A DNA stretch of 64,000 nt from Chitinophaga pinensis (lineage in GTDB: Bacteria; Bacteroidota; Bacteroidia; NS11-12g; UBA9320). The stretch lies in contig CAMDSC010000002.1 of the NCBI GenBank assembly GCA_945907065.1, positions 28,345 to 92,344 on the forward strand, read 5' to 3'. The notes below the pieces were generated by a model that saw nothing but the letters and a program-made list of their open reading frames with translations, was not told the DNA's origin and ran no database searches. Each line of letters opens with the position of its first letter. Position 1 is the first letter of the stretch. A program made the translations under genes and the position numbers. Of the stretch, positions 29,417 to 60,800 are shown in pieces.

Positions 29417-30528
29417 TTAAAAAGATCTAATGGCTCTTATATAGGCAGGGGAAGTTTTTACATAACTACCGGAGTTTCCAGTGTTAAAATCTTGATAACC
29501 TGCATATACACCATCTGCACCGATCGAATGCCAGTATAAATCTTTTAAAAAATTACCAAATTTTTGTCTATTTTGATATAGAATTAACATTTCATTTCTA
29601 CTACCTAAATACCAATCATCATATCCATTTAATTCAAGATTATAACATATTCTAGCAGCATACTGTCCTTCACCTTCGCTATTAATTATAGCCTCTGTAT
29701 TTTGCTTGCCTGACCCAAAATCAGAGCTTGTGGCTCCAGTAAAAGTATAATAAAATGACCATGGATAATGTCCTTGATCTTCTTCTGCAGCAATTAAACC
29801 GTTTGTTTGGGTACCATCAAGATAAAAAATAATACCACCTTGATATTTTTGTCCAATGCTTAGAGTTACTGGCTGAGCTGCATCGACATTCGATTCTGCA
29901 ATAGGGTTTTCAGTTGGTTGTGCTTCTGCAATTGACGCAAAACTCAGAGCAGTATCATTTGCTGCTTTTTTCATTTGGGGACTGTTTTTAATTTAAATAT
30001 TGAAAAATAAATACTATAAATATTAAAATAGCCAGTCCTCCTATTATAAACCACTTTCTAGTTTTTAAAGATTTAAAAGCTGAAGTATTATTTTTTGCTA
30101 CGCTTGACTTTTCATTATAAATCGGTCCAGTGTCTTTTTCAACAGCAGTTTCAATGACTAAGTGTTGGTTTAATACTTCTAACAATTCACTTAACCCATC
30201 CTTGTAGGCATCTTTAAAATCTATATGTTGCAAACGCTTTAACCTAAATGGCGTATTAAAATCATTCAGCAATATTGGAATTACTGATTTTGTCTTTTCG
30301 AGAGCAAATGAAACCTCATCCATTACATTATTAGAATTTACCGACTCATTAGATAACACTACAATTAGGGTTGAGGCAGATTCAAGTGCTGTTTCAATAG
30401 ATGCATCCTAGCGACTAGCTGGCTTAATATCTAATTGGTCAAGCCAAACATTTGCACCTCTTTTGCTAATTTAAAACAAAGTTTGAGTCTGTTCTAGCAT
30501 AACTGAAAAAAATAGTGTTTTTATCCAT
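29417..30528 (-). pseudogene. Disrupted TIR - TM - Lcl/DUF1566-like fusion gene
   Basis: ATG 30528 MDKNTIFFSYARTDSNFVL, frameshift, GANVWLDQLDIKPASR, TAG 30408-30410 in place of W, ...SNNVMDEV...; TM helix; +1 shift near 29992-29995 into IGQKYQGGIIFY...YDDWYL...YW...IRAIRSF. Confidence 0.8.
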
Positions 30529-34050: not shown

Positions 34051-35037
34051 ATGACAAATACTTTTTTTATCTATTGGAAACTTCCCGGCAAAAAAGAAAT
34101 TTTTACCATTGAAAATCCTCAAATTAGTAAGATTTCAGAAACGGATTTATCAGAAGAAGGATTTATTTTTCTTCCTTATAATAAAAATCAATTTGGCTAT
34201 TTAATAAAAGGTGAGATAAATAAAACCACTGACTTCAAATTTCCTCCATTATTAAAAAATGAAACCCAGCTAAATTTTCATGATAATCATAAAAATTATC
34301 TTGCAATAGTTACTAAAGCGATTGATCAAATAAAGAACGGGGATTTCAAAAAAGCAGTTTTGGCTCATTCCTTTATTCAAAAATTACCTCCTAATTTCAA
34401 TCTCAATCTATTTTTTGAAAAGCTTTGCAATCAATATCCCAATGCCTTTGTTTACTGCTTATCTATTGAAAATGAAATCTGGATTGGAGCTACACCTGAA
34501 GTATTTCTAAAAAAAGAAAACAATTTATTTTTGACGTATGCCCTTGCCGGAACCAAACAATTAAATGAAGGGATAAAGTTTAGCAACAAGGAACTAGATG
34601 AGCAACTGCTAGTAAAAAATTATATAGTTGACAAGCTAATTAATTTTGAAACTGAGAATATCGAAGTTTCCGAGGTTAGAGAACTCAATACCGGAAATCT
34701 TAAACATTTGATAAATGAAATACGATTTAATACCACAAAACCAATTGATATAATTAATGAGATTCATCCAACACCTGCAGTTTGTGGCACACCATTAATG
34801 CAGGCATCTAATTTTATTAAACAAAATGAAAATCTAGACAGGGAATTTTACTCAGGATTTTTAGGACCTATTTATAAAAATAGAGATTTTTCATTTTGGG
34901 TAAATCTGCGTTGCGCCAAAATTAGTAATGATTTAATAAAATTTTATGCAGGAGCAGGAATTACGGCAAATAGCGTGGCTGAAGCCGAATGGCAGGAAAC
35001 CGAAAAAAAAATAGATACTCTTAGAACTTTACTATAG
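34051..35037 (+). CDS. menF: Isochorismate synthase (chorismate-binding MST family)
   Basis: KAVLA, GATPE, ALAGT, KE..EQ, HPTPAVCG, R.FYSG..G, VNLRC, YAGAGI, ET..K. Confidence 0.85.
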   Translation: MTNTFFIYWKLPGKKEIFTIENPQISKISETDLSEEGFIFLPYNKNQFGYLIKGEINKTTDFKFPPLLKNETQLNFHDNHKNYLAIVTKAIDQIKNGDFKKAVLAHSFIQKLPPNFNLNLFFEKLCNQYPNAFVYCLSIENEIWIGATPEVFLKKENNLFLTYALAGTKQLNEGIKFSNKELDEQLLVKNYIVDKLINFETENIEVSEVRELNTGNLKHLINEIRFNTTKPIDIINEIHPTPAVCGTPLMQASNFIKQNENLDREFYSGFLGPIYKNRDFSFWVNLRCAKISNDLIKFYAGAGITANSVAEAEWQETEKKIDTLRTLL

Positions 35038-35424
35038 ATACTTTTTAATCATATCAGCGGTTGCCATAAGTTCTTCATTGGTTGGTTTCATTTTTTCTTT
35101 CGAAAAATCAATATCAGAAACCGAACTTATTGGAATTAAATGAATATGAGCATGAGGCACCTCAAGACCTATGACCACAACCCCAATTTTTTTACAATCG
35201 ATGGCAGATTTTATTCCTTTGGCTACTTTTTGTGCAAATAAATTTAGTGAAGTGTAGTCATCAGGCGCCATATCAAAAATATAGTCTATAGGTATCTTTG
35301 GTATTACCAATACATGTCCTTGCTTTAATGGGCTGATATCTAAGAAGGCCAAATGATTCGAATCTTCGGCTACTTTATGACAAGGAATTTCACCGCTTAT
35401 TATTTTACTAAAGATACTGGCCAT
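35032..35424 (-). CDS. HIT family nucleotide hydrolase
   Basis: SIFSKII.GEIP, AFLDI.P...GH.LVIPK, VPHAHIHLIP. Confidence 0.93.
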   Translation of the reverse strand: MASIFSKIISGEIPCHKVAEDSNHLAFLDISPLKQGHVLVIPKIPIDYIFDMAPDDYTSLNLFAQKVAKGIKSAIDCKKIGVVVIGLEVPHAHIHLIPISSVSDIDFSKEKMKPTNEELMATADMIKKYL

Positions 35425-35455
35425 TATTAAAAGTTAGAGTTATAGAAAACAAAAT

Positions 35456-35929
35456 TTAAACTACAGAAATATCAAGTATTTCAAAATTTATGGTTCCAGC
35501 AGGCACCATTACTTCAACATGGTCTCCAATTTTTTTACCCATAAGCCCCATAGCTATTGGTGATTTAACTGAAATTTTTCCCAATTTAAGATCGGCTTCT
35601 TTTTCAGAAACAATTGTATAATTAACGCTCGAATTTGTTTTTTTATTTAGTACAGTAACCTTGGTTAATATTCCTACTTTACTTAAATCTACTTTAGTTT
35701 CATCCAATATTCTACTATCTCCTAATATATTTTTAAGTTTGGCTATTTTCATTTCAAGCATTCCCTGAGCTTCTTTGGCAGCATCGTATTCTGCATTTTC
35801 CGAAAGGTCACCTTTTTCCTTTGCTTCTGCTATCTGCCCACTAATACGACGTCTTTCCACTTTTTCCAATTGTTCTATTTCTTTCACTAAGGCATCGTAT
35901 CCTTCCTTGGTCATGTAATTTATAGCCAT
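35456..35929 (-). CDS. greA: Transcription elongation factor GreA
   Basis: GDLSENAEYDAAKE, IS..SPIA; start at ATG 35929 (the ORF-track extension runs through the leader hairpin). Confidence 0.96.
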   Translation of the reverse strand: MAINYMTKEGYDALVKEIEQLEKVERRRISGQIAEAKEKGDLSENAEYDAAKEAQGMLEMKIAKLKNILGDSRILDETKVDLSKVGILTKVTVLNKKTNSSVNYTIVSEKEADLKLGKISVKSPIAMGLMGKKIGDHVEVMVPAGTINFEILDISVV

Positions 35930-35958
35930 AATATTTAAAATTCTATTTAATGTGATAT

Positions 35959-36009
35959 AAAAATAAAGTTGCACCAACCGTATTCGGTTGATGCAACGCT
36001 ACAAATATA
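35959..36009 (-). promoter_or_regulatory. greA promoter followed by a terminator-like leader hairpin
   Basis: TATATTTG (36002-36009), then GUUGCAUCAACCG-AAUA-CGGUUGGUGCAAC and UUUAUUUUU. Confidence 0.7.
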
Positions 36010-36052: not shown

Positions 36053-37174
36053 TTATTCACTTTGATTTCCTAGTGACATTTTTAAACCAATAGAATGAGT
36101 ACCTGAAAAAGGACGAGTATCGCGATATGAATAATCTAAGGCAAAGCGATTGCCATCTTTTCCATATGGCAATTCAAAAGTTACCCCTCCCATTAATCCT
36201 GTACTGGCCGTGCGACGAGTATCGTAACTCATAATACCTTTTTCGTAAGCATAACCGGCACGAACCATAAACATACTTTTGTATATATATTCAGCACCAA
36301 ATGTGGTTTGATTTAATGAAAAGGCATTGTAAGTAAAATTAGCTGCAAGTGATAGAGTATGAAAATTAGTTTCTTCATTCTTATCAAGTTTAATATCATG
36401 GGCACCCCCAATATTAATTAATGCAGGAATATTATACTTAGCTATCCGTTGATTAACTGTAGCTTCCTGATTATCTTTCGGATTAAGTCTTTTAATAGAA
36501 ATACCATCTCCTGAATACTTAACATCCGGTCCAATATTTTTTATTGATACGCCAAAATGAGTATCGTCTGCTGTTTTCCAACTTGTTTTATATTGAATAC
36601 CAGCATCAATGGCAACACCCTGAGCTTTTAAATTGGAAGCATTTTCAGAATATACTCTTAACAAAACACCCCCTGTAATTCGTTCTGTAAATTTCCGGCC
36701 ATATCCTAAACCAATATTAGTTAAACGTGGCGAAAAATTCCCCAGTCCTCCATTTGGTTGTTGCACGGTAGTGATAGGTATATCGCCAAGATCAATAGAA
36801 CTTATGGATAATCCTAGAGCATTATCATTCCCTAGATTTTGAGCAAAACCAAAACTGCTTATGTTAACACCTGAACCTGATAACCAACTTGTTCTGGCAA
36901 AAGCAATATCAGTTTTGGGAGTATTCACCAATCCTCCAATATTCATATACATGGATTCAATTCCTTTTATACTGCTTTGTGAAGCCCAACCTAAACCTGA
37001 TGAACGAGCCCAACCGTTTATTACAAGTTGATTTGCACTGGCCTGCCCACCTCTGTCAGGGTTTCCGGCAAAGGAAGTAACACTTATCAATCCAAGGGCT
37101 ATTATATTTACAATTCTTAATTTACTCATTATTCTATTTTTAAAACTTTTGAATTCGCTAATTTTTGGTTCCAT
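36053..37174 (-). CDS. PorV/PorQ-family outer-membrane beta-barrel
   Basis: Signal peptide from M16 (37129); GNPDRGGQA..L.I...ARS.G, YMN.GGL, DAGIQY, G..IKNIG, G.EY, RAGY, DYSY, H.I.L pattern. Confidence 0.75.
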   Translation of the reverse strand: MEPKISEFKSFKNRIMSKLRIVNIIALGLISVTSFAGNPDRGGQASANQLVINGWARSSGLGWASQSSIKGIESMYMNIGGLVNTPKTDIAFARTSWLSGSGVNISSFGFAQNLGNDNALGLSISSIDLGDIPITTVQQPNGGLGNFSPRLTNIGLGYGRKFTERITGGVLLRVYSENASNLKAQGVAIDAGIQYKTSWKTADDTHFGVSIKNIGPDVKYSGDGISIKRLNPKDNQEATVNQRIAKYNIPALINIGGAHDIKLDKNEETNFHTLSLAANFTYNAFSLNQTTFGAEYIYKSMFMVRAGYAYEKGIMSYDTRRTASTGLMGGVTFELPYGKDGNRFALDYSYRDTRPFSGTHSIGLKMSLGNQSE

Positions 37175-37176
37175 AT
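37127..37176 (-). promoter_or_regulatory. Shared 5' motif, copy B (PorV-like gene)
   Basis: ATATGGAACCAAAAATTAGCGAATTCAAAAGTTTTAAAAATAGAATAATG. Confidence 0.55.
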
Positions 37177-37197
37177 TTTATGAATATTTTAATCTTT

Positions 37198-40100
37198 TTA
37201 AAAGGAATCCAAATCTAATTCGCGCATCACACCCATCCATTTAATTACCTTTTCACCAAGCCCAGGAGCATTCACATGAATAAGATACACACCACTGGCT
37301 ATTGGCACTTTGGCATCATTTTTCATATCCCACAATACATCCGTTGATTGATCATCTTTTTTAATCCTTCTAACTAGAGTGCCATCAATAGTATAAATTG
37401 AAATATCACATCTCATAGGTAAATTGGTAAACTTCACTGTGTTTTCAATAGAGGTATTTTCATAATCAGAATATGCATAATATGGATTAGGAACTACGTT
37501 TATCATATCTAATGCTTTTATTCCATGTTTCGGTGCAACTTCGGTAAATACTTCATTGGTATTAAACTCGTACCGTGGATTATCAAAATTTAAAGTATTA
37601 GCTATGGTATTATAAAATCTATACGGTTTTTTAACCCTAATTTTAAATCGCACTTCAGTTTCAGGCACTGGCATTCCATTTACTTCCTTCATTTTATAAC
37701 CAGTAGCCATATATGTCGGTATAACATACATACACTGATACATCACTTTATTTATAATAGTGGTTCTGGCAGTTTCAGTCATCAAATTATCTGCTGCTTT
37801 AAGTATATCATAATAGGCTTGTCCTTGATCATAAATTGGCAATAATGGCTGCTGAGAAGGAACAATTCCTTGATATGAGCCCATTAAATAAATATAATGA
37901 CGACCACCATTGGCAATTATTCCTGTTCCACCATTTGCATAAAAACCTGCATCTGAAGTTGGATTCCATTTCATATCACGACCATTGTTTGAGTATTGAC
38001 GAGAATCTTCACCAAAGACAATATTCAATCGTTCTCCGGTTTCTACATTTATAGCATATCCAGGAAACCAACTGCGACCAGTTTCTCCAGGTATTTCTGT
38101 TCCATCTATATTTAACGAAGCATGAGCTCTTAAATTAAATTTCTTATTTGCCCCTTCACTTAATATATTGTCATCACTCATTTCAAGCACACAAGAACGG
38201 GTCCATTTCTTTTGATCTGGTGTAATAACAAATTCAATACTCGATAATTGGTTTAATCCCCATTGGCTATTAGTAGGGGTGCCATCAAAAGCGACACCTT
38301 GTATTTGAGTGGCACCAAATTTGGCACCTGCATTACTTGTAAAACGAGAGGCTAAACGATATGGCCCAACGCGACCTTCCCATAATTTTTCATAACTTTC
38401 AAATGGGTCTATTGCATTTCCATTTATAGCATAATCATTTTCTGTAGGATCTTTAAATTGATCTGCTTTGCCATTGGTACCAGAGTGTAACCAATTCCAA
38501 AAAGGTACACCATCAATATCTCTCATACCTGAAAGCCACTCTTTTCCTTTATCGGCAAAAATAACTTCACAACCTAATGAACCATTTGTTTCATCAATAT
38601 CTGGATTTCCAGGGTCTAATACTTGATCAATGGATACTGCCATTCCCCAATCGGCAAGTTTTGCAGGTTCTTTATACCAAGCGGTATCTGTTCTTTTTGA
38701 TGCAAATTGCCATTTATTACCTTTTGTAATTATTTGCTCGTTATGTATATTTATCTTTTCATCAGAAAAAATTGTATCAGGAATTCCTCCTTCATTTTTC
38801 TTAATAAGAATCCATCTGGTAACATGCCCTTTAACTCCTGCTTCACGTTTGCGAATTGCAGAAGCGGTTCCGCTCAAATTTATTGAATCTTTCAATTCAA
38901 TAAGTACAAGTTCAAAATCTCCTTTTGGAACTTTTAATGGATCAACTATGGAAATCTTTACTGGTCCTTTACCTACTTCATAAACAGGATTAAGAACTTT
39001 ATAGGGCGGGGCACTAACAATTTCAAATTCCGTTTCAGGAGTTAAATCAATAATATTACCTCCATTTCCACTTCCTTCAATTCTTTTTATGCGTGGGCCA
39101 CCACCATAGCTTGTATTTAATTTAGCTCCACCTAAGCGAGGTTCAGTATTTCGAGGTGATGCAACTAATATTGCACCCTTTTCTGGCAATTGCCCAAGGA
39201 GGTATTGATCCTCCGTACTTAAAGGAGCCGCAGAATAAGGGAAAATCATATAATAATATGTTTTAAAATTCACTAAAGATTTATTAGAACCGGTTGCAAA
39301 GGCATCTTCTTTAATCGATAATGAATGTACTAATCCTTTATTTGGTGCATCTATCATTAATTTTGGTAATGCTTGCCCTAAGGTTACATCACAAGGTTTA
39401 TTTACCAAGCGAATAACGTTGTTCTTTAAATCGCAAATAAAAATTTCACGAACCTTTTCTGCATCTTCTAAATCTCCAGGACCAGCACTTCCATCTTTAC
39501 ATTGGAATATACGATATCCTTCAAATTTATAAACTTGTGGTTTTTGGTTTGCATCAAGTACTGTTTTACTAAATCCTTCAACATTCTTAGTATTACCCAA
39601 CATTAATATTAATTCATTGTCTAATTCCTGAACTGTTGTAATAACAGCTTCGGGGCCTAGTAATGGAACAAAACAATTATTAAATAATGTTTGTGCTTTA
39701 TCACTGGCTAATTTTAATAATGCCAAAGAACCTTCGGCACCACCGGTACTTGCCCTTGCCCATACAATACCTACGGTAAGTTTATTAAATGCTCCAGACT
39801 TTAGGGTAAATGGTCCGCTGGTTTGCATAAAACGTCTGTCGGCTGCTGGATTTCCAGCGGAACGTTCATTCCAGTTTCCCGTAACTTTAGGGTCTGTATC
39901 AAATGGAAATAAGTAATTGGTACAGTTTGTTCCTGTACGACCGCTTTTTCCATCATTGGTCATACATTTACCATTTTTCCATCTACCGGTTAAATAATAA
40001 TAATAATGAATGGGGCGCTGAGGGTTTCCAAAATCAGTAAAATCATTATCATAGTAAACAAATTTACTCATTCCTAATTCGAAAGTAGTATCTCGTCCAT

Positions 40101-41247
40101 TAATGGTTGTATCCTTTTTAGGTCCTTCAAAAAAATCAACACCAACTGAAGGTGGATTTAAACCATAACCTAATATACCTTCATCGTTATCATCACCGTT
40201 ATAGGCAAATCCTAAACTTCTTCCAACATCGCATCCTACATAGTCATCTTTATAATTTCCTAAGTCAGCATCTACCCACTCTCCAAAATAAGTATCATAA
40301 AGTGTACTTGCTCCACGATTTACAATTCGAGTGGTATAAAATGTCATATTATTTATTTCATCATTTGATGCATATGCAAATGCAGTAGTATGTAATTCCA
40401 ATCCAATAGGCAATGCTCCTGATTCAGCATGATTATTTCCCTTATCGTTATAAACAAAATAGAGCATTTCTGTAGGTTGCCCATCTATTAAATTTTTCAC
40501 TTCATCTTCCTTCGTTGATGGAAAATCTGTAACTTTTTTACCTCTGCACTCATTTTGTAATACAGGAAAATCTCCACTAATAGGATCATACGTTCCATTT
40601 TTATTAGCATCATAGTAAGGTGCCATTGGTGGCATTGTAATACTAGAATTACCTGGCCAACCTGCAATATTCTCAGATAAGGTTGGGACCCCGCTTAAAA
40701 TATTACTACGATGTTCTAAAATTTCAGATTTTAATACTTTATAAATATTATCCCATTTCTTACAAGTCACTTCATCGGTGTTGGATTGATTGTCAAGTGG
40801 TCCTGGCCAAAAGTCGGAACCTCCTTGTCTGTAGGTCATAGCAGCAAGTTTTAACGCACCAGATCCTCCTTTACCATCATAACCTCCCACCCATATAGCT
40901 CCTGAAAACAAAGAATGTTTTCTCACGGTGTTTACATTGGTAGCAATTTTGGGTATCTCATATTTTGGATTGGAGAGATCCCACCACATATCACCACCGT
41001 TCAAAATCTTTGTTCGCACATTGTTCACATCCAAGTCGGCACTAGCAGTAGAAGGATCGCAGGATGCTGCAAATTTCATTAGCTTATGGGGCGGAACTAC
41101 AGGCTTTACAAGTTTTTCTCCGATGTTTTCTTTTGCAATAAGGTTAGTTGCCATTCCTAAAGCAAATAATGAAAACAGTATAAATTTAATTGTTTTATTC
41201 ATTCTATTATTTTTAAAATTATGGTATTCGAAATATTTAGGTTTCAT
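37198..41247 (-). CDS. Large secreted protein of unknown function with T9SS/FlgD-like CTD
   Basis: Signal peptide from M16 (41202); N-domain LDVNNVR...GDMWWD...YRQ...DFWPGP; DANKNGTYD Ca-loop-like motif; CTD VVPNPY...IYTIDG.LVR...WD.KN...ASGVY. Confidence 0.8.
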   Translation of the reverse strand: MKPKYFEYHNFKNNRMNKTIKFILFSLFALGMATNLIAKENIGEKLVKPVVPPHKLMKFAASCDPSTASADLDVNNVRTKILNGGDMWWDLSNPKYEIPKIATNVNTVRKHSLFSGAIWVGGYDGKGGSGALKLAAMTYRQGGSDFWPGPLDNQSNTDEVTCKKWDNIYKVLKSEILEHRSNILSGVPTLSENIAGWPGNSSITMPPMAPYYDANKNGTYDPISGDFPVLQNECRGKKVTDFPSTKEDEVKNLIDGQPTEMLYFVYNDKGNNHAESGALPIGLELHTTAFAYASNDEINNMTFYTTRIVNRGASTLYDTYFGEWVDADLGNYKDDYVGCDVGRSLGFAYNGDDNDEGILGYGLNPPSVGVDFFEGPKKDTTINGRDTTFELGMSKFVYYDNDFTDFGNPQRPIHYYYYLTGRWKNGKCMTNDGKSGRTGTNCTNYLFPFDTDPKVTGNWNERSAGNPAADRRFMQTSGPFTLKSGAFNKLTVGIVWARASTGGAEGSLALLKLASDKAQTLFNNCFVPLLGPEAVITTVQELDNELILMLGNTKNVEGFSKTVLDANQKPQVYKFEGYRIFQCKDGSAGPGDLEDAEKVREIFICDLKNNVIRLVNKPCDVTLGQALPKLMIDAPNKGLVHSLSIKEDAFATGSNKSLVNFKTYYYMIFPYSAAPLSTEDQYLLGQLPEKGAILVASPRNTEPRLGGAKLNTSYGGGPRIKRIEGSGNGGNIIDLTPETEFEIVSAPPYKVLNPVYEVGKGPVKISIVDPLKVPKGDFELVLIELKDSINLSGTASAIRKREAGVKGHVTRWILIKKNEGGIPDTIFSDEKINIHNEQIITKGNKWQFASKRTDTAWYKEPAKLADWGMAVSIDQVLDPGNPDIDETNGSLGCEVIFADKGKEWLSGMRDIDGVPFWNWLHSGTNGKADQFKDPTENDYAINGNAIDPFESYEKLWEGRVGPYRLASRFTSNAGAKFGATQIQGVAFDGTPTNSQWGLNQLSSIEFVITPDQKKWTRSCVLEMSDDNILSEGANKKFNLRAHASLNIDGTEIPGETGRSWFPGYAINVETGERLNIVFGEDSRQYSNNGRDMKWNPTSDAGFYANGGTGIIANGGRHYIYLMGSYQGIVPSQQPLLPIYDQGQAYYDILKAADNLMTETARTTIINKVMYQCMYVIPTYMATGYKMKEVNGMPVPETEVRFKIRVKKPYRFYNTIANTLNFDNPRYEFNTNEVFTEVAPKHGIKALDMINVVPNPYYAYSDYENTSIENTVKFTNLPMRCDISIYTIDGTLVRRIKKDDQSTDVLWDMKNDAKVPIASGVYLIHVNAPGLGEKVIKWMGVMRELDLDSF

Positions 41248-41249
41248 AT
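41200..41249 (-). promoter_or_regulatory. Shared 5' motif, copy A (cargo gene)
   Basis: ATATGAAACCTAAATATTTCGAATACCATAATTTTAAAAATAATAGAATG. Confidence 0.55.
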
Positions 41250-41268
41250 GTTTCTAATCAGTTTGTTA

Positions 41269-44200
41269 TTAAAGCGTGAATCTTACTCCTAAACGCATCA
41301 ATCTTGGTGCAGCATAGTTAAATGGATTATTTACACTGATATTATATAAATCAATAAATGATTGCTGACTTACTTCTTGTGAAATTTTTTGCTGACCTTC
41401 AGGTGAGCTTAAATATCCATCATCGTTAGGCAAACCAGAGAAAGCATAAACACCATTAATAATTTTACTATTGAAAAGATTTTGAACGGTAAAAAACACA
41501 GTCATTCCTGTTACATTAATTCTATCTTCCTTAATTTGTTTCTTCTTAAATTCATGATAGTGTTGGAAATTCACATCAGCCTTTAACTGCCAAGGCATTC
41601 TTGAACCATAAGGATTTCCCTTTATTTGACTACGAGTTACCGTTCCTAAGGCTGATAGGGCGGTGGCGGTAGGGCTTAAATTGGCTGTATATGGTGCACC
41701 TGAACGAGCTACAACAATAAAGCTTGCATCTGAATTTGCAAATATCCTTTTGCCAAACCATACTGGCCCATTATATTCTTTACCGCCTTGATATCCATAA
41801 CTAAATGTGGTATTAAAATTATGACGGAAATCAACATCTAAAGGGTAAAGTGAACGAAGATTGGGTTGATTGGCTTGCAATAATGCGCCTTGTGAATTTA
41901 TATTAGAACCTGTTCCATCAGCAAATAATAAAGTGTAGTTTGCTGACATTTGGAAATTTTTTAAACCTCTATACTGATATTCAGCTCTGAATGCTTTGTT
42001 GGTTGAAAAATCAATGTTGGCATAGCTTGTATAAGATACAGGATATGCTTGACTATAGCGATATTGTCCAAAATCATTTCGTATTTCTGAATAAGACATT
42101 ATTAAACTAATAGAGGAAACGTCATTCAATTTCTGTTTGTAACCCAACTCATACATAGTTTTAATACGTGGCTTTAAAGCTGCATTTGGCAAAAATCTGC
42201 TTTGGTCAGATTCAAGGAAATAATAAGAACTAATTGGTGTAAATGTAGCACCATCAGTAGGCCGCTGGGTTAATACATCATAATTAGCAAAGAAAAGTGC
42301 TTCCTTATTAATTGGAAACGAAAACCAAACACGTGGCAAGATATTGACTTGTGGTTGATAATCTTTAAAAGCTTCTTTTACAATATTCTTATTATTTGCA
42401 TCAACAAGGTAAGGTTGTATAATATTTTTTGAAGTTTGTTGTGCAAGTATTTCAGGATTTGCAACTTCTACACCTTGGGCATCATACCAAGTATTATCTT
42501 TTCTATAACCTAATATAATTGGATTATTCTGATTAGTTACATATACTGAGTAATCATCTTTAATATTATCTGGAATAGGGTTGTTTTTATTTATTTGCTC
42601 AATATTATCTAGTTCTCCAACTGTTTTAATTGGATAAAGTGAATATGGATCTTTTAAAGTTGATTGATTTGCATCATATCTTTCTACCCTTACCCCAACT
42701 CTAAAAATCATATCTTTTATTGCAAATTTATCTTGCAACCAAGCTGCACTGTATATTGGCGCAAATGAACCAATACTGCGATTTTGTTTATCATTAAGGA
42801 AGTCATTTATACTGAATTTTTTGCGGGTTCTATTTCCTAAATAATCGTATCCTGAATAACTCACATATTGATTATTTTTATTATTTAAATCATCAGCACT
42901 AAACATATTAAGATTTAAATCTTGTGGTGATAAAGAATTTACATCTATAAATGATGTCTCTGTAATTTTATTTCCATATGCATCTACTGCTCCTTTTGCT
43001 ATTAATTTAGCTCTTAAATTTTTATCAAATGTTGATTGTTGGTCGGCATCTACTCTTACCTTATATTTTACTGTATCCAAAAATCTTCCATCCTTATCAT
43101 ACGATTGAATACTATTTAAAATGTAATCCCCTTGTTTCAGTTGATCTAAACTGACAATATGCCTATTGGCTATTTGTGGCATTAATATCCAAAGACTATT
43201 GGCGCTTAAACCATAAGAACTTAATATATTTTGTTCATAGGTCATACCGAACTGGATATCGTGCTTATTTTCTTTATTCTTACCTGTATTAATTGAAGCC
43301 TCACCAACAGCATATGCTGAAATTCTTTCTTGTTGGCTTTTACTATAACCAGCCAATAAACTACCCGGATTAGCCCATAATGAATAAGTGGTTGGTAAAG
43401 AATATCCATTTAGCAAACCATTAAATGTAGCAATTGCTCCATCGCTTGGTGCACCATTTAATCCATATGTATTCTTAAAATAATCAAAGGCATTTTCTGT
43501 ATATCTGCTTCTCAATACATTTTTATCACTGGCCTGATAAGTAATCATTGTATCTCTAAATCCCGTAAGTTCTAAATACCCCTGACGAACTACCGTATCC
43601 ATTTTACCATTATTATCAACAATAAATTTCTGTGCTCCTTCTTTATATTCGTATACAGGAGCTCTAAAATGTGTGAATTTACCAATATATCCATAATCAA
43701 AAACATTATCTTGATGCATACTATGCTGGCTTTTACCAATACTAGTTTGATAATCGGCACGAATGGAATAAAATGCATCTGAAACTAAAGGCTTCTTAGC
43801 ATCTTTTTCTTTCTTATCACCACTTTGATACCCTATTTTTTGAGTATATCTTAAATATCCACGGTAAGTTTGATTGCTGTTTGTAGAGTATTCATCATAA
43901 TTTAATAATGATGAAGTATAGCTATAGCCTTTTGATTGCTGAACAGCCCCGGTAGCAAAAAGTGTTAAAACAGATGTTTTAGAAGGGGTATATTCAAATT
44001 TTGCGTTTAAAACTCCTGCATACAATGGAACATTTTGACGGGCTTTATTAAGTACCAAATCGTTTTGAGTTAAAAAAGATGAAGTGGTAATAAAACCTCC
44101 TCCATTTGGATTAGCAGTTAAAGGATTTTCTTTAATATTATTAAGAACATCCTCTTTCACAGTCCATGAACCAAGAACAGTTGGACTTGCATCTTTTTGG

Positions 44201-45054
44201 TATTCTAAATGGCCTGAAATATTATAACCAAAAAGCACTCTTTCTTTATCTCCACCGCCTTTATTAATAATTTTTAAAGGACCTGAATAAGCTAATTCTA
44301 AAGTATTGTAATGCCACTTGTCAAAAAGACTGGAAGTAACATATTCATAATATTGAGACCTTCTTCTGCTAGGGCCTTTAGTTGTAATATTTATTGCTCC
44401 TCCTGTAAGGTCACCAAACATGGCAGGTACACCACTTTGTATAAGGTCAATTTGTTCCTGACCAATTGTTGGCATTGCTGAACTACCTATAACCGCTACA
44501 CCGTCTACAAATAAACGGGTTCCATCTGTTCTGTTACCCAAAAATGAAATCCCACCACCCGAAGAGTTTACACCCGAAGAAGTATTAGCAATAGCACCTA
44601 AACCTCTTTGTGGTAATTTTAAAAGATCTTTTGATGTAAGGGTATTCTTATTGGCATCTTCTTCCACCAATTTTTTTCTATATCGGATAACATCTACTGT
44701 GCCTAAATCTTTACCATCTTCACTAGCTACCGATAATTCAATATTCCAAAAGGTTATTTTGCTACTATTTACAGTTATTCCCTCAGCCATATATTTGGTA
44801 TAGCCAACATAACTTACCTCAATATCATATTCACCCGGATCAATTCCTTTAATAAAATAATTTCCATTATCATCGCTTGAGGTTGAAGCTTTTACTATTC
44901 CTTCTTTTTTTACCACCACAGTGGCATAGTCAAGAGCTGAACGGGTTTTTTTGTCTGTAACTTTTCCTCTTATCTCACCGTAATTAGATTGAGAGTAGCC
45001 CAAACCTGACAAGAGAATTAGTACTAGAATGCTTAAGTAGTGTTTTAAACTCAT
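41269..45054 (-). CDS. TonB-dependent receptor-like protein with N-terminal carboxypeptidase-regulatory-like domain
   Basis: Signal peptide; GEIRGKVTD...GNYFI..IDPGEYDIEVSYVGY; plug FVDGV...GVPAMFGD.TGGAINITTK; barrel RVERYD, PRVWFSFP, YELGY; C-terminus RLGVRFTL. Confidence 0.85.
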   Translation of the reverse strand: MSLKHYLSILVLILLSGLGYSQSNYGEIRGKVTDKKTRSALDYATVVVKKEGIVKASTSSDDNGNYFIKGIDPGEYDIEVSYVGYTKYMAEGITVNSSKITFWNIELSVASEDGKDLGTVDVIRYRKKLVEEDANKNTLTSKDLLKLPQRGLGAIANTSSGVNSSGGGISFLGNRTDGTRLFVDGVAVIGSSAMPTIGQEQIDLIQSGVPAMFGDLTGGAINITTKGPSRRRSQYYEYVTSSLFDKWHYNTLELAYSGPLKIINKGGGDKERVLFGYNISGHLEYQKDASPTVLGSWTVKEDVLNNIKENPLTANPNGGGFITTSSFLTQNDLVLNKARQNVPLYAGVLNAKFEYTPSKTSVLTLFATGAVQQSKGYSYTSSLLNYDEYSTNSNQTYRGYLRYTQKIGYQSGDKKEKDAKKPLVSDAFYSIRADYQTSIGKSQHSMHQDNVFDYGYIGKFTHFRAPVYEYKEGAQKFIVDNNGKMDTVVRQGYLELTGFRDTMITYQASDKNVLRSRYTENAFDYFKNTYGLNGAPSDGAIATFNGLLNGYSLPTTYSLWANPGSLLAGYSKSQQERISAYAVGEASINTGKNKENKHDIQFGMTYEQNILSSYGLSANSLWILMPQIANRHIVSLDQLKQGDYILNSIQSYDKDGRFLDTVKYKVRVDADQQSTFDKNLRAKLIAKGAVDAYGNKITETSFIDVNSLSPQDLNLNMFSADDLNNKNNQYVSYSGYDYLGNRTRKKFSINDFLNDKQNRSIGSFAPIYSAAWLQDKFAIKDMIFRVGVRVERYDANQSTLKDPYSLYPIKTVGELDNIEQINKNNPIPDNIKDDYSVYVTNQNNPIILGYRKDNTWYDAQGVEVANPEILAQQTSKNIIQPYLVDANNKNIVKEAFKDYQPQVNILPRVWFSFPINKEALFFANYDVLTQRPTDGATFTPISSYYFLESDQSRFLPNAALKPRIKTMYELGYKQKLNDVSSISLIMSYSEIRNDFGQYRYSQAYPVSYTSYANIDFSTNKAFRAEYQYRGLKNFQMSANYTLLFADGTGSNINSQGALLQANQPNLRSLYPLDVDFRHNFNTTFSYGYQGGKEYNGPVWFGKRIFANSDASFIVVARSGAPYTANLSPTATALSALGTVTRSQIKGNPYGSRMPWQLKADVNFQHYHEFKKKQIKEDRINVTGMTVFFTVQNLFNSKIINGVYAFSGLPNDDGYLSSPEGQQKISQEVSQQSFIDLYNISVNNPFNYAAPRLMRLGVRFTL

Positions 45055-45140: not shown

Positions 45141-46133
45141 TCAAGGGAATTTTTGCTCTTCTTTAAATCCTTTTTCAAGGTGGGACGAAAGGTTGTAAAA
45201 TTCTTTAATTTTAGTGGCCAAACTTTCCGAAATCTTTTGATAAGATTGGCGTGTCCAGCCACCGATGTGTGGTGTTAATACTACATTTGATAATGACCTT
45301 AATTTTTCAAATTCGGCCGTTTCTAAATTATTAAGTTGGTTAATTCGTTCGTTTTCGAGCACATCGGCTGCAAAGCCAATGATTTTTTTTGTTTCCAAAG
45401 CTTCCAGCACATCTGCTGTTTTTACTATCATTCCACGTGAGTGATTTAATAAACGGAACGGCTTTGAAAAATTATTAATAAAATTTTTATCTACTAAATA
45501 TTTTGTTTCCGATGTTAAAGGTATATGAAGTGAAACTATATCTGCATTCTGAAAAATTTCATTCATATCGGTTTCTTTTATCTGTGCATTTCCAAAACCT
45601 GATTTATATTTATCATAAGCCAAAATTTGAACTCCAAAACCGCCTAATACTTTTGCAAACCGGCTTCCGGTATTTCCATATCCAATTATCCCAACGGTTT
45701 TCCCTTCCAATTGATCGCCACAGTTTCCTTCTCTATCCCATTTTTGGCTCCTTACTTCTTTGTCAGATTTTGTAATATTAGCCAGCAGGCTTAATAACAT
45801 TCCCAAGGTATGCTCGGCCACAGCCTGACTGTTAGCTTCGGCTGTATTTATATAAGCTATTTCTTTTTTATCCAACCATTCGGTATCTAAATTATCAACT
45901 CCTGAACCTGCTCGGGCCACAAGTTGTAAGTCATTAGCAAATTGGCAAAGTTCACTATTTACAAAAACTTTACTTCTTACAATAAGGATTTGTTTATTGG
46001 TTAAAGCCAAAGGAACATCGGCCGGATTAATAGCTGGCAAATAAGTAATATCAAATTTTTGCAACCCGCTCTGCTCAAAAAAGCAAGGATGCAAATCATC
46101 AATTACTAAAATATTTATTTTATCACTTGCCAT
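45141..46133 (-). CDS. D-isomer-specific 2-hydroxyacid dehydrogenase (SerA-like, no ACT domain)
   Basis: ARAGSGVDN, AVAEH, GIIGYGNTG, SLHIPL, DVLENE, TPHIGG. Confidence 0.88.
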   Translation of the reverse strand: MASDKINILVIDDLHPCFFEQSGLQKFDITYLPAINPADVPLALTNKQILIVRSKVFVNSELCQFANDLQLVARAGSGVDNLDTEWLDKKEIAYINTAEANSQAVAEHTLGMLLSLLANITKSDKEVRSQKWDREGNCGDQLEGKTVGIIGYGNTGSRFAKVLGGFGVQILAYDKYKSGFGNAQIKETDMNEIFQNADIVSLHIPLTSETKYLVDKNFINNFSKPFRLLNHSRGMIVKTADVLEALETKKIIGFAADVLENERINQLNNLETAEFEKLRSLSNVVLTPHIGGWTRQSYQKISESLATKIKEFYNLSSHLEKGFKEEQKFP

Positions 46134-54877: not shown

Positions 54878-57800
54878 TTATTTCTTTACTTCAAATCTTA
54901 AAATAGTGGTTTTACCTGTATCTGTGGAAAGTTTAACAAGATAAATACCAGCTGCAAGGTTATGATTATCAATACTAATTGTAGAGCTAAAACGTTTACC
55001 TTCCATTACTTGACGACCTAACTGATCATAAATAACCATATTAACCATATCTCCCGTGCTCACATCCAAAGTAAAATTATCTGTGCTTGGATTTGGATAT
55101 AAGTTGGCCGCAAAAGCATTTTTTGTAAATGGATTTATTCCTGCAGTTGGAGTAAGGGTAACATTATAATTAGCAGGATTTCCATTACAACCATTTACAC
55201 CTTTTTCTGTTACAGTAACTGTGCCAGTGGCTCCGGTTAAATTCCATTTTACTTGAATCAAACTTGTACCATTATTTTGAACCACACCATTAACCGCCTG
55301 CCAGTTATAAGTAGAACCAGGAGTTGAAGCAACGCTGTAAACTTGGGTACTTCCATTATTAGCTGTAGTTGGTCCGGATATAGTAATAGCCGAAGGATTT
55401 GGCAATACCCTAACAAAATAATAGGCTGAATCCTTGCAAGAGAATGGCGTTGTAACATTTAGTGTTACTTTATAATTGCCAGCCGCAGCATAAGACCTTG
55501 AAGCATTTGGGGTAGATATGGTTGACCCATCTCCCAAATTCCAAAAACTGCTATAGGTTCCTGCTAAAATTGTAGTGTTGGTATAAACATAACTATTACC
55601 ATTTAAGCATTGTGTTTCATTGTTATGAGTAAATTCGGCTATAGGACTTGGATGAACGGTAACTTGTTTTGATATACTATCAATACACCCATCAGCAGAT
55701 ATTACACTTAATCTAAATGTATACGTTCCCGGAGCTGTAAAGTTTTTCACAACATTTATGCCTCCAATACTTGACCCGTCTCCTAAATTCCACACACGTG
55801 TGATTGAACCTTGGCTAATTGATGAAGCATCACTTAACGAAAATAGATGTCCGTTGTAACATTGTGAGTTATTATTAATATTAAAGTTTGCAATAGGTTT
55901 TGGACTTACCATTATAGTGCTCATTGCTGAATCTTTGCAACCGTTATTACCTGTCACAATTAATTTCACATTATAGGCTCCTGAGCTAGCATAATTCTTA
56001 GTTGGATTTGCTGCTGTTGATGTACTTCCATCACCCAAAGCCCAAGCTCTTGTGAATGTTCCGGATGATATTGTTGAATTATCGGTAAAGACAAAATTAT
56101 TACCATTTATACATTGACCAATATCATTAACACTAAATGAAGCTTTAGGTGCAGAAAACACATTCACTGCCTTGGTTACTGAGCTTACACAACCATTAAT
56201 AGATTTTACATTTAATATTACATTGTAAGTTCCAGATGCACTGTAGTTATAAGTTGGATTAAAGCTATTTGAACTACTTCCATCACCAAATTGCCATTGC
56301 GCATCATTTACCCCCGTAGAAGTATTAACAAATACTATGGATTGACCGATACAACGATCCGATGCTGTAAAATTAGCAACAGGATTAGCAAAAATTGTAA
56401 TTGTTCTTGTAATTACTTCTGAGCAGCTATTTGCATTAGTTGCAGTTAATTTTACAGTGTAAGTTCCTGCTGCTGCATATACTTTGGTAGGTGATGCTAT
56501 TGTTGATGTACTTGCATCTCCAAAATCCCATAAATATGTGCTACCTCCAATTGATGTATTGTTAAATGTAACTAACCCCCCTGCACAAACGTTGGTGGCA
56601 TTGAAATTTGGAATTGGTTTAGAATAAACCAACACTGAACTTGTTGCTGAATTTACACAACCTTTATCAGTGGTTACTGTAAGATTTACTGTATAATTTC
56701 CTCCTGAAGCATAGGTGTTGGTTGGATTGGTATTGCTACTAGTATTACCATCACCAAATTTCCATTGATTAGTCATGTTTCCAGCTGAAAGTGATGAGGT
56801 ATTAGTAAACGTTGCCGTTAATCCTACACAGAAACTGGATGGATTAGTAAAGGAAACCGCTGCTCTTGGATGCACTGTAACCGAATTAGTAGTGGTATCT
56901 TTACAACCATTAGGAGAAGTTACTATCAATTTTACACTATAAGTTGATGGACTCGTATATCCTTTTGAAGGATTAGTAGAAGTTGAAGAATTTCCATCTC
57001 CAAAAGTCCATTCATGTCCAACAGCACCTGTTGAGTTACTAGTAAATGAAAGATTATCATTTGTACAGCCATTATTTACAATAAATGAAGCAACCGGTCT
57101 TGGCCAAATAGTAACCGACTTAGTCAATGAATCTTTACAACCATTGCTGCTAACTGATACCAATTTTACGGAATAATTACCAGACACATTGTAAATATTT
57201 GTAGGATTCATAAGTGTGCTTGTATTTGAATTACCAAATGTCCAATTATAGGTTGCCCCATTTGTGGTTGTATTAGTAAAACTCATTAATCCACCGCGAC
57301 AAATTGGATCAGGAGCGGCAGTAAACGAAACTGAAGGACGAGGATAAACTGTAATTGTTTTGGTTACAGAATCTTTGCAACTGTTCACAGAAGTTACTAC
57401 AAGTTTGACGCTATAAGTATTTGCGCTTGCATAAGTATACGTTGGTGAAGTAGCAGCACTTGATTTGCCATCACCAAATTGCCAAACATAAGCATTAGCG
57501 CCGGTTGATTGGTTTGTAAAGCTTACTGCGGTGCCTAAACATTGGTTTGCTGCAGTAAATGCAGGCACAGGCTTAGCATAAATAACAATTGTATTTGTAA
57601 CAGAATCTTTACAGCCAAAAGTATTAGTAACTACAAGTTTTACATTATAATTTCCTGCAGCCGTGTAAGTTTTTGATGGACTACCAACCGTTGAAGTTGT
57701 TGCATCACCAAAATTCCAAGTATTTAAAGAAGCTCCTGTACTTGTATTATTAAAGGTTATACTATTTCCTAAACAAGCATTACTACCCGTAAATAAGGCT

Positions 57801-60800
57801 TTTGGCGAACTATTAACTGTATATGATTTTGCAACTGAATTAACGCAACCGTTGGAAGAAGTTGAAGTTAGTGAAACAGTATAAGTTCCCGCTGTAGGAT
57901 AGGTATAGGTAGGATTGGTTGCAGTAGAACTATTTCCATTTCCAAAATTCCAAGAATAGGTACTTGCACCTGTTGAAGTATTTGTAAAAGTACTTAAAAA
58001 TCCATTACAAACATTGGCAGTAGTAAAGTTGGCCACAGGATTCGGATAAATGGTTACAGTATTTGCTACTGAATCTAAACATCCATTACTAGAGGTAACT
58101 TTCAATTTAACACTATAAGTATTTGCACTGGCATAGCTATTACTTGGATTAACATTTGAAGAAGTATTACCATCACCAAAATTCCAAGAGTAACTAACGG
58201 CTCCGCTCGATGAGTTATTAAAGTTAGTGGTTGTTCCTATACAATTATTGGATACAGAAAAAACTGCTTTTGGTTTACTAAATACATTAATTGATTTAAC
58301 TAATGAGTCTTTACAACCAAAACTAGATGTGGCTACTAACTTAGCGTTATAAGTAGCGGCAACTGAATAGGTTTTAGTAAATGTTGAACTTGTTGTTGCA
58401 CTCGTTGTACCATCGCCAAACGACCATGCCAATGAAGCATAATTGGTAGAATTATTTGTGAATGATGTAGCTTCAGGAAAACAATTATTTGTTGCTGTAA
58501 AGCTTGGTGTTGATTTAATATTAAATGCAACCGTTTTAGTTATTGAATCTTTAAATCCTCCTGGTAATGAAATTTTAAATTTAACATTATACGTTCCTGG
58601 GGAGTTATAGCGTTTACGAGCATTTTGGACATTAGACTTGGTTCCATCACCAAAATCCCAACTATATACAAGACCTGAACCAGCACCGCATGCATATACT
58701 GTATTATCAGTAAATATTGCAGAATCTCCTTGGCATTTTAATACAAAAGTGAACGAAGGTAAAGGTGTAGTTGCTACTATAACTGATTTTGTTAAAGAAT
58801 CCTTACATCCCAAGTTACTAGTACCAACTAAGGTAACGTTATAGGTACCACTTGATGAATATGTTTTATTAGGAACACTTGAGGTACTTGTTCCACCATC
58901 GCCAAATTTCCACAAATACGATAAAGTACCCGAAGATATATTTGAAGTATTGGATAAAGGCATTGGATCATTAAAACAATGGTTTGAAGCCGTAAACACA
59001 ATATTTGGTTTTGCAAGAGTCCTTATTTTTAATGCATTACTTGTTCCATTTGGGCAACCTGTATTGCCAGCTAATCTTTGGAAATAAGTTAATCCTGAAA
59101 CTGCAGGTGATGAATAATTCGATGATGTAGCTCCACTTATGTTATTCCAATTTATACTATCGGTAGAGGACTGCCATTGGAATGTATAACTTCCTGGACC
59201 TCCTGATGGAGCGGAAATTTGTGTAAATCCAGCTGGGGTGTATCCTGCACAAACAGTTTGTCCACTTCCTATTGTTCCTCCTGTAATTGGTGAAAATAAT
59301 TTTATTTTAATACCATTTGTTCCAGCGGTAGGACATGAGCCTGAAGTAACAAGTGAACGGTAATAAGTTACACTTGTAACATTGGTTGGAGTAAAGGTAG
59401 CTCCTGTTTGTCCCGTGATATTACTCCATGTAGATGAATCAGTTGATTGCTGCCATTGATACGTATAGGTTCCAAAAGCTCCTGTTGGTGTTGTAATAAA
59501 ACTTAATGCAGAGCCTGTTCCATTAAAACAAATGGTTTGGGGGGAACCAATAGTGCCTGCAGATAATACAGCACCACACTTAATTCTAACGATATTACTA
59601 AATGATGGCCCACAACCAACAGTTGTTTTTACAGATCTACGATACCATCTATTTGATGTAAGTGTGCCTGGTTGATAATCTATACCAGTTGCTCCACTAA
59701 TATCAGTATATGTTGTACTATCGGTAGAAGATTGCCACTGATAATTATATGAGCCAATACTTCCTGATGCAGCTGAAGAGTTGGTAATTAATGATGGGGC
59801 TGTATTAAAACAAATGGTTTGGTTACTTCCTATTACACCAGCATTGAGATTGGTTAATATTGATACCGCTCGTGATCCGCTATCTATACAACCATTATTG
59901 GATGTTGAAATAATTTTGACAGTATAAGTGCTACCTGCAGTAGCATAAGTACGATTTACAGAGTTACCTGTTCCTGTTCCTCCATCACCAAAACGCCATA
60001 AGTTAGCTGTTATTGTTCCTCCTGATACCGTAGATGTTGAAACAAACTTTACGGCGTTTCCAGCACATGTATCGCTATATGTAAATGTAGGTTTAGGTAA
60101 AGGATTCATATTCATCGTAATTGTTGATGAATCATTCATTCTTACATCCTCATTCGATAAATTGGAAAATGATTTTACGGTATATGTTCCACCTAATGAC
60201 GAGTTAAATGTTCCAGTAAAAGTATATGAAGCTGTTGCATTAGAAGCAAGAGGACCAGTAAATACTTCTGAAATATTTAATGTAGCTCCACCACTAACTA
60301 CTAATCTCACAGGAATATTGCTTTGACTTTGTAAGCCAAAATTCTTTAAGGTTACAGTTATAGCAGTTGCCGGTTTTCCACATGTATTATTTACTGAGGT
60401 AATGGCACTAACCCCAACATCATTTTGGAAAGCTTCGCTTGAGCCAATTGTAGGAGTGGTGGCATTTCTCAACAAATTTGTAAAGTCAGTTGTAATTCCT
60501 GATATTGGAATAGCTTTACCATAAATCATTCCAGCTTCAGTATTAGCTCCTTTCAAGTTAAGATTACCAATAGCAGTATTTTGGAATAAATTAGCTGGAT
60601 TAATTTCGCCAGTTGAAGTACCAGAAGAAATATTTAAGGAGTTTATATCACAATTTGAATTAAGTTTCCAATCGCTAAAATTATAATCAGAAATATTCCA
60701 TAGCCCTATTGGATTGCCTGAAGTGTTGCTTAACAAATTAAAATTACTTGCATTTGGCTGCCATCCTGTTTGAAAGGTTGTAATAACATTTTGGTTTCCA

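Follow-up and report, generated by a model that had tools for sequence, protein, structure and literature searches.

A three-gene locus of Bacteroidota encoding a TonB-dependent receptor, a large secreted protein and a private PorV-like barrel, a candidate surface uptake module

What might a TonB-dependent receptor, a large secreted protein and a PorV-like barrel do together when they are encoded side by side? This question is raised by three consecutive open reading frames (ORFs) on the minus strand, hereafter called the triad, in a 64,000-nucleotide (nt) stretch of Chitinophaga pinensis DNA (GTDB lineage Bacteria; Bacteroidota; Bacteroidia; NS11-12g; UBA9320; assembly GCA_945907065.1, contig CAMDSC010000002.1, positions 28,345 to 92,344 of the forward strand). 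The whole stretch is called the window below, and positions are those of the window. To our knowledge, outer-membrane uptake in Bacteroidota is understood almost entirely through the SusC/SusD-type pairs of gut and model species, and the secretion system of type IX (T9SS) is viewed as an export and attachment system. A preliminary description, made from the nucleotide sequence, regarded the triad as an undescribed outer-membrane system. No description of the arrangement was found in full-text searches of the published literature, and no published characterisation speaks against this claim. The reading developed here, namely that one operon builds a complex in which a T9SS-exported protein docked on a private barrel serves the uptake function of the receptor, is put forward with confidence and doubt in equal measure.

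Gene 1 encodes the receptor (protein P0001), gene 2 the large secreted protein (P0002) and gene 3 the barrel (P0003; Table 1). The three genes are co-directional, and their longest ORFs are separated by 21 nt (41248-41268) and 23 nt (37175-37197), exactly as first described. The signal-peptide-like stretches of the gene 2 and gene 3 proteins start at Met16, with 15 residues preceding each, and the real spacers are about 66 and 68 nt if both genes start there. Because the upstream ATG of gene 2 is ATA in the nearest relative (locus L011), the sequence makes Met16 (41202) the likelier start of gene 2, giving a protein of 1334 amino acids (aa), and Met16 (37129) is also the likely start of gene 3. 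The earlier size of about 1330 aa for the gene 2 product therefore agrees with the likelier start but not with the longest ORF. The sole terminator-like hairpin on the coding strand follows gene 3, no second one being found on the minus strand inside the triad, and together with the short spacers this makes a single transcription unit plausible. A promoter scan was uninformative (58 sites against 47.1 +/- 7.8 in shuffled sequences). A look-alike stretch of about 45 nt lies 5' of the likely starts of gene 2 (41203-41247) and gene 3 (37130-37174) on the minus strand, and makes the longest ORFs of both genes begin 15 codons early. It is present at both junctions in the window and in the nearest relative only, and in none of 18 other order-level loci. 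Since it is so confined, it has the look of a small, recent insertion or repeat and not of a conserved signal, and its proposed value as evidence of co-regulation finds no support.

The gene 3 barrel is a private extra paralog and not the PorV of this genome, because the genome also encodes canonical PorU-PorV, PorQ, PorZ and PorV2. P0003 matches the PorV/PorQ family model NF033709 with 141.3 bits (cut-off 90), as do 22/22 triad barrels, and the gene 3 family profile matches Flavobacterium johnsoniae PorV (6h3i_F) with E 9.9e-21. P0003 stays below the equivalog cut-offs for PorV (68.5 vs 250 bits), PorQ (69.9 vs 220) and PorV2 (30.1 vs 325). On other contigs of the same genome, PorU is found with 1187 bits, PorV with 465, PorQ with 346, PorV2 with 468 and PorZ with 551, the canonical porU-porV pair consisting of a 1267-aa gene followed by a 412-aa gene. 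All five of the other triad genomes checked carry a canonical PorV in addition to the triad barrel; PorQ is listed in four of them and PorV2 exceeds its cut-off in three, the complete genome G036, from another class, giving 292 bits against 325, and G128 having neither PorQ nor PorV2 listed at the threshold used. In an unrooted maximum-likelihood tree of 58 PorV-family barrels, the groups of which were set by gene neighbourhood or NCBIfam model and not by the tree itself, the 24 barrels that neighbour a P0002-type gene fall into a single split, supported at 100/99 and recovered in all 200 bootstrap trees, and PorV, PorQ and PorV2 are each separate from it. The preliminary description had asked whether the barrel could be the only canonical PorV of its genome; it is not, since the canonical one lies elsewhere and the triad barrel belongs to a clade of its own. 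In the single-contig genome G319, the canonical PorV is matched in two adjacent frames (C1:352713-353794; model positions 1-164 and 164-326), which suggests a frameshift or a sequencing error.

The C-terminal domain (CTD) of the gene 2 protein resembles those of PorZ and PorU. The matches cover only positions 671-741 of the 757 of the PorZ model (25.4 bits vs a cut-off of 260) and positions 987-1076 of the 1095 of the PorU model (18.7 bits vs 420), placing P0002 below both equivalog cut-offs, and the gene 2 family profile finds the PorZ CTD (5m11_A) in the PDB with E 0.0022. PF18962 is found in four of 22 gene 2 relatives at E<=0.1. The CTD matches the best part of the protein in conservation, with a mean top-residue frequency of 0.60 compared with 0.65 in the best core block. 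P0002 carries the VVPNPY motif and ends with RELDLDSF, part of a tail that extends past the last CTD strand. A tail of this kind is present in all 22 aligned members of the gene 2 family, which come from several classes. It is lacking in the 12 barrel-adjacent CTD proteins of G036 and in this genome's 11 other CTD hits, among them PorU and PorZ. The CTD had been called atypical, and this view is borne out: it is PorZ/PorU-like, well conserved and equipped with a family-specific tail. According to a review, the CTDs of PorU and PorZ are retained uncleaved and bound to PorV and PorQ, and cognate PorV-like barrels are suggested to protect a CTD from cleavage (PMC10202324). By analogy, the gene 2 CTD looks like a docking module.

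The body of the gene 2 protein has no family match in Pfam or NCBIfam, where only the CTD was matched, and a search of the PDB by sequence gave nothing; the PorZ CTD is likewise the sole PDB match of the family profile, with nothing on the body, and the Atlas holds no named cluster for the protein. A PorU2/PorZ-like sortase was considered and dropped because the match to those models is limited to the CTD. The AlphaFold2 (AF2) model of residues 40-1239 (m8f0eeb4e7341) has a pLDDT of 87.1 and a pTM of 0.76, and the model of residues 529-1239 (mf685b65a98ab) a pLDDT of 90.7 and a pTM of 0.89. The predicted structure comprises a decorated beta-supersandwich, an FN3-like domain with an insertion and a beta-rich region of about 535 residues that is confidently modelled and is the most variable part across classes. 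In VIA-align, the supersandwich is matched by N-domains from enzymes of families GH94, GH15, GH116 and GH65, at Z 17-19 and a root-mean-square deviation (rmsd) of 3.0-3.8 over about 250 residues. These matches include dextran dextrinase 9ju0, at Z 19.0 with 254 residues aligned and an rmsd of 3.2, as well as cellodextrin phosphorylase 8xi1 (Z 18.3) and glucodextranase 1ug9 (Z 18.1). An acidic cluster of Asp-326, Asp-328, Asp-334, Asp-335, Asp-352, Asp-355 and Asp-371 is kept in at least 21 of 22 rows of the alignment, and of 45 polar or aromatic residues retained across classes the supersandwich holds 28, D470-R471-R472 being among the kept residues. In VIA wide, the FN3-like domain matches the lambda tail tip 8iyk_J (Z 9.8, 96 residues aligned at an rmsd of 2.3), and it has many matches to FN3 domains with Z of about 8-9. 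Foldseek with residues 529-1239 gave no match at E<=0.001, and VIA wide with the same residues as one query listed only FN3 matches to residues 529-703 and none to 704-1239. At least 2674 relatives of gene 2 are on record, mostly full-length, which their sources name hypothetical or, once, T9SS sorting-domain protein, and the N-terminal 646 residues match 6774 cluster representatives. The N-terminal part of gene 2 also has a 499-aa paralog with a type A CTD in the genome of the window (G000; E 2.1e-25; contig C3, L009:8542-10041, minus strand). This paralog follows an extracytoplasmic function (ECF) sigma factor and a 437-aa gene, and behind it come two giant proteins, 1553 and 1266 aa long, whose CTDs are of type B.

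Gene 1 can be assigned, by its family profile, to a real TonB-dependent receptor family in which the plug is clear at the family level. The profile A3, built from 20 members, finds the plug of the colicin I receptor Cir (2hdf_A) with E 6.9e-16, followed by PirA and PfeA, and matches a barrel stretch of PhuR with E 4e-5. Among the same members, Pfam recognises CarboxypepD_reg in 20/20, Plug in 16/20, TonB_dep_Rec_b-barrel (PF00593) in 6/20 with a best E of 1.3e-26 among receptor relatives, PF25183 in 4/20 and PF14905 in 3/20. A TonB-box-like stretch past the N-terminal domain of P0001 was seen by eye in the translation. A SusC identity is ruled out, the SusC/RagA model TIGR04056 giving no match to P0001 at E<=0.1. 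A free-standing 154-aa ORF resembling the CarboxypepD_reg part of the receptor (E 3.9e-36) lies near mfd on contig C3 of the same genome (L010:1-465, minus strand).

The order and strand of the triad are kept in 37 of 40 fetched loci, comprising 20 order-level matches and 20 of the best class- or phylum-level ones; two others run into contig ends, and the last is a second copy standing alone. Because it recurs in so many loci, the arrangement is more than chance. The synteny survey proposed in the preliminary description thus finds the three families strongly linked, and the similar triads mentioned there do occur in other classes of the phylum. The gene 2 protein is present in 120/121 sampled genomes of the order, in 253/301 sampled genomes of the class (family profile, E<=1e-40; 48/301 without a match; the tally takes in the unpublished genomes G450 and G521) and in 116/251 genomes of a phylum-wide sample (E<=1e-10), where many of the weaker matches are partial. 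When public contigs were scanned, 709 of 715 candidate stretches were confirmed, and the best 79 public loci come from uncultured genomes only, labelled Bacteroidia, Cryomorphaceae, Crocinitomicaceae, Saprospiraceae, Lewinellaceae, Chitinophagales and the like. The triad is also present in several genomes that consist of one contig (G167, G083, G207, G107, G500 and G518). The surroundings are conserved as well: the 2-hydroxyacid dehydrogenase gene adjoins the triad in 19/20 order-level, 5/10 class-level and 3/9 other-class loci, greA lies directly 3' of it in 20/20, 9/10 and 0/9, respectively, and the HIT-family gene stands by it in 20/20 order-level and 8/10 class-level loci and was not found in the other-class loci. 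The block of dehydrogenase, triad, greA and HIT gene is conserved, and therefore the triad of Bacteroidia is an old, vertically inherited and mostly single-copy locus, not a mobile substrate-specific cluster. Two full-length gene 2 copies within about 10 kb are found in some class genomes (G388:C15:28034-37393, G475:C61:7209-17385 and G528:C35:30609-40217).

In another class, the module is multiplied. G036 encodes 16 PorV-family paralogs, and a receptor, a CTD protein and a barrel stand in this order in nine of 14 regions around them; together with locus L047, this amounts to at least 10 triads. Between 615 and 1285 aa long, the middle proteins of these triads include three with a P0002-like N-domain. 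The module is thus general and diversified, like uptake loci. Among the regions of this genome (loci L167-L180), a CTD protein is followed by two barrels in L180, and a barrel directly follows the receptor in L175.

These observations lead to a hypothesis of how the triad may work. The three genes would form one operon that builds an outer-membrane complex. The gene 2 protein would be exported by Sec and then by the T9SS through its PorZ/PorU-like CTD. By analogy with PorZ on PorQ and PorU on PorV, the CTD and its family-specific tail would probably be left uncleaved, and the CTD would probably stay docked on the co-encoded barrel, holding the 150-kDa protein on the cell surface with no lipid anchor. 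The supersandwich, with its acidic and probably metal-binding cluster, may bind or handle a ligand, most likely a glycan, which would be passed to the neighbouring TonB-dependent receptor for energised import. The gene 2 protein would thereby fill the role that the SusD, RagB or BtuG lipoproteins have for their receptors. Retention of the CTD, its docking on the barrel, the contact with the receptor, the class of ligand and the direction of transport are all steps that we infer: the conservation of the CTD and the analogy with PorZ and PorU point to anchoring by the barrel, and the strict synteny and the diversified multi-copy form in another class point to coupling with the receptor. A bolder version, in which the triad is an ancient phylum-wide alternative to SusC/SusD with a T9SS-supplied partner tethered to a barrel by its uncleaved CTD, the tailed form is a core and constitutively placed importer, retained as a single copy by most environmental Bacteroidia, and the tail provides a second lock on the barrel or receptor, can be offered only tentatively and may well be wrong.

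Several observations weigh against a complex dedicated to uptake. The 40 loci were picked by us and not at random. The general T9SS sorting-domain model TIGR04183 gives 21.2 bits to the CTD of P0002, just under its cut-off of 23. A function cannot be read from the supersandwich fold by itself, and the structure matches listed include no (alpha/alpha)6 barrel or other catalytic domain, the model being mostly beta and residues 704-1239 having been searched only within a larger query. Neither a peptidase nor an inner-membrane transporter is found by Pfam among the 19 neighbouring ORFs, and these also lack a CAZyme, a regulator and a SusD, as does the triad itself a SusD between its genes; on this point the preliminary description was right. 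A near-universal single copy within a housekeeping block is as compatible with a constitutive role in the envelope as with nutrient capture. The stretch is present in 20 of 24 runs listed, six of which are freshwater RNA libraries. Four RNA libraries, drawn from at least three studies, have contigs covering all three genes, and a metatranscriptome contig of 1675 nt spans the junction of genes 1 and 2 with no mismatch; no contig among those listed bridges the junction of genes 2 and 3, which does not amount to evidence of a break. Contigs of RNA libraries can contain DNA and are no proof of a single transcript.

The gene 2 protein might instead be an ordinary T9SS cargo, such as an adhesin, an S-layer-like coat or a secreted enzyme, that is cleaved and then released or attached to lipopolysaccharide (LPS), with the barrel as its private shuttle only and the receptor co-expressed, perhaps importing products, with no complex being formed. 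The type A-like CTD and the large multi-domain, beta-rich architecture with an FN3-like domain would suit such a cargo, and one paper describes cognate shuttles that serve particular type B cargo (PMC12618676); since it also holds that all type A CTDs are recognised by PorV, it would have to be explained why a type A-like CTD has a private barrel. Across classes, the CTD and tail are conserved like the core, which is unusual for a mere export tag, and the three-gene order is strictly kept over very long distances. This explanation is accordingly regarded as unlikely, if worth keeping in mind. An outward-working receptor, as Oar of Myxococcus is said to be, through which the large protein or some other substrate would be exported or released, is very improbable: the combination of CarboxypepD_reg with a TonB-type barrel, and the hits to PF25183 and PF14905 rather than to the classical barrel model, would allow it, but the large protein has its own export signal in the CTD and the genome has a full T9SS.

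It is also conceivable, though quite improbable, that the triad serves the T9SS, attachment or outer-membrane biogenesis as an accessory or alternative module, in which a PorZ/PorQ-like pair binds a surface glycolipid or glycan and is joined by a PorF-like TonB-type barrel, all serving the secretion or anchoring of other proteins and not import. Such a role would agree with a CTD closest to those of PorZ and PorU, with the binding of anionic LPS by PorZ, as reported in a published study (PMC8545088), and with the near-universal single copy in a housekeeping gene block, although the resemblance to PorZ and PorU is limited to the CTD, the genome already has a complete PorU, PorV, PorQ and PorZ set, and 48/301 sampled class genomes have no match at the class threshold given above. 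Barrels of the TonB-dependent type have been tied to secretion, and this also counts against import: PorF is a T9SS component of this type, and the C. hutchinsonii TonB-dependent receptor CHU_1606 co-purified with PorV, while the same source describes PG0534 as having no plug (PMC8564354), in contrast to the receptor family of the triad. [quoted passage not shown] The many diversified triads per genome in other classes are typical of uptake systems and not of core machinery. On balance, the docked partner of an importing receptor is the best-supported reading.

The PorZ-PorQ and PorU-PorV pairs of the Porphyromonas gingivalis attachment complex are like the triad in combining a large secreted protein bearing a type A-like CTD with a PorV/PorQ-family barrel, and the porU-porV genes of this genome have the same layout as genes 2 and 3. 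Their CTDs, reported in a review as uncleaved and barrel-bound (PMC10202324), are the closest to that of gene 2. The gene 2 body, in contrast, consists of the supersandwich, the FN3-like domain and a beta-rich region with no assigned fold and not of a sortase or propeller, and the triad has a separate barrel clade, an extra CTD tail and an always co-encoded TonB-dependent receptor, the canonical four being encoded elsewhere. SusC/SusD, RagA/RagB and BtuB/BtuG likewise place a CarboxypepD_reg TonB-dependent receptor beside a surface-exposed partner and are multiplied and diversified in some genomes. Unlike them, the triad has a receptor that lacks a SusC/RagA match and a partner that is neither SusD-like nor a lipoprotein, having no lipobox Cys, but is about 1300 aa long, is predicted to be exported by the T9SS and comes with a barrel of its own as a third gene. 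Type B CTD cargo of F. johnsoniae is linked to a dedicated FadL-like PorP/SprF barrel that decides its fate, as reported (PMC12618676), whereas the triad CTD is type A-like and its barrel of the PorV/PorQ family, only three of 22 barrels touching the PorP model (best E 2.1e-5). The BamG-BamH pair of the Bacteroidota BAM also has a FadL-like barrel whose loops hold a large extracellular protein, but BamH is reported to be a surface lipoprotein and the pair to sit on BamA (PMC12578637); only one of the 22 triad barrels touches the BamG model (E 1.9e-5).

What is new is thus a combination of two known kinds of arrangement, a TonB receptor with a surface partner and a CTD docking on a PorV-like barrel. 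If true, a module joining uptake with the T9SS would be a second way to build surface capture machines and would extend the PorZ-PorQ docking principle beyond the secretion machine. The triad is conserved in most sampled families of Bacteroidia and multiplied in another class, and it draws attention to thousands of proteins of about 1300 residues that are labelled hypothetical and are present in freshwater metatranscriptomes.

Table 1. Features of the triad and its surroundings in the window, with residue numbers counted from the start of the longest ORF
Feature	Position	Strand	Evidence
Gene 1, TonB-dependent receptor, 1261 aa (P0001): signal peptide, CarboxypepD_reg, plug and large barrel region	41269..45054	-	
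CarboxypepD_reg N-terminal extension of receptor (residues 28-108)	44731..44973	-	PF13620 E 2.6e-14, 53.7 bits vs cut-off 32.3
Plug-like region of receptor (residues 134-215)	44410..44655	-	PF07715 weak alone: 15 bits vs cut-off 23.9
Gene 2, secreted protein, 1349 aa (P0002): signal peptide with no lipobox Cys	37198..41247	-	
Decorated beta-supersandwich (residues 63-528)	39664..41061	-	Predicted model and VIA-align
FN3-like domain with insertion (residues 529-703)	39139..39663	-	Predicted model and VIA wide
Beta-rich region, about 535 residues (704-1239)	37531..39138	-	
PorZ/PorU-like type A CTD (residues 1240-1349)	37201..37530	-	NCBIfam PorZ model E 4.5e-6; PorU model E 2.7e-4
Conserved tail, about 9-10 residues past last CTD strand (…MRELDLDSF)	37201..37230	-	
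Gene 3, PorV/PorQ-family barrel, 373 aa (P0003)	36053..37174	-	
Terminator-like hairpin, 56 nt 3' of gene 3 stop	35968..35997	-	13-bp stem, 7 G-C pairs, T-rich tail; consensus match only
D-2-hydroxyacid dehydrogenase, kept upstream neighbour	45141..46133	-	Pfam
greA and HIT-family gene, kept downstream neighbours	35032..35977	-	Pfam

The neighbours recognised by Pfam among the 19 ORFs scanned are housekeeping genes, namely greA, the HIT-family gene, the 2-hydroxyacid dehydrogenase gene, a racemase gene and two skp/ompH genes. Farther away on the minus strand, an ORF of more than 3029 aa (54878-64000) runs past the end of the window, and at 29417-30359 a 123-aa ORF that matches only the end of a TIR domain (E 8.4e-7) adjoins a 185-aa ORF with a weak Lcl_C match.

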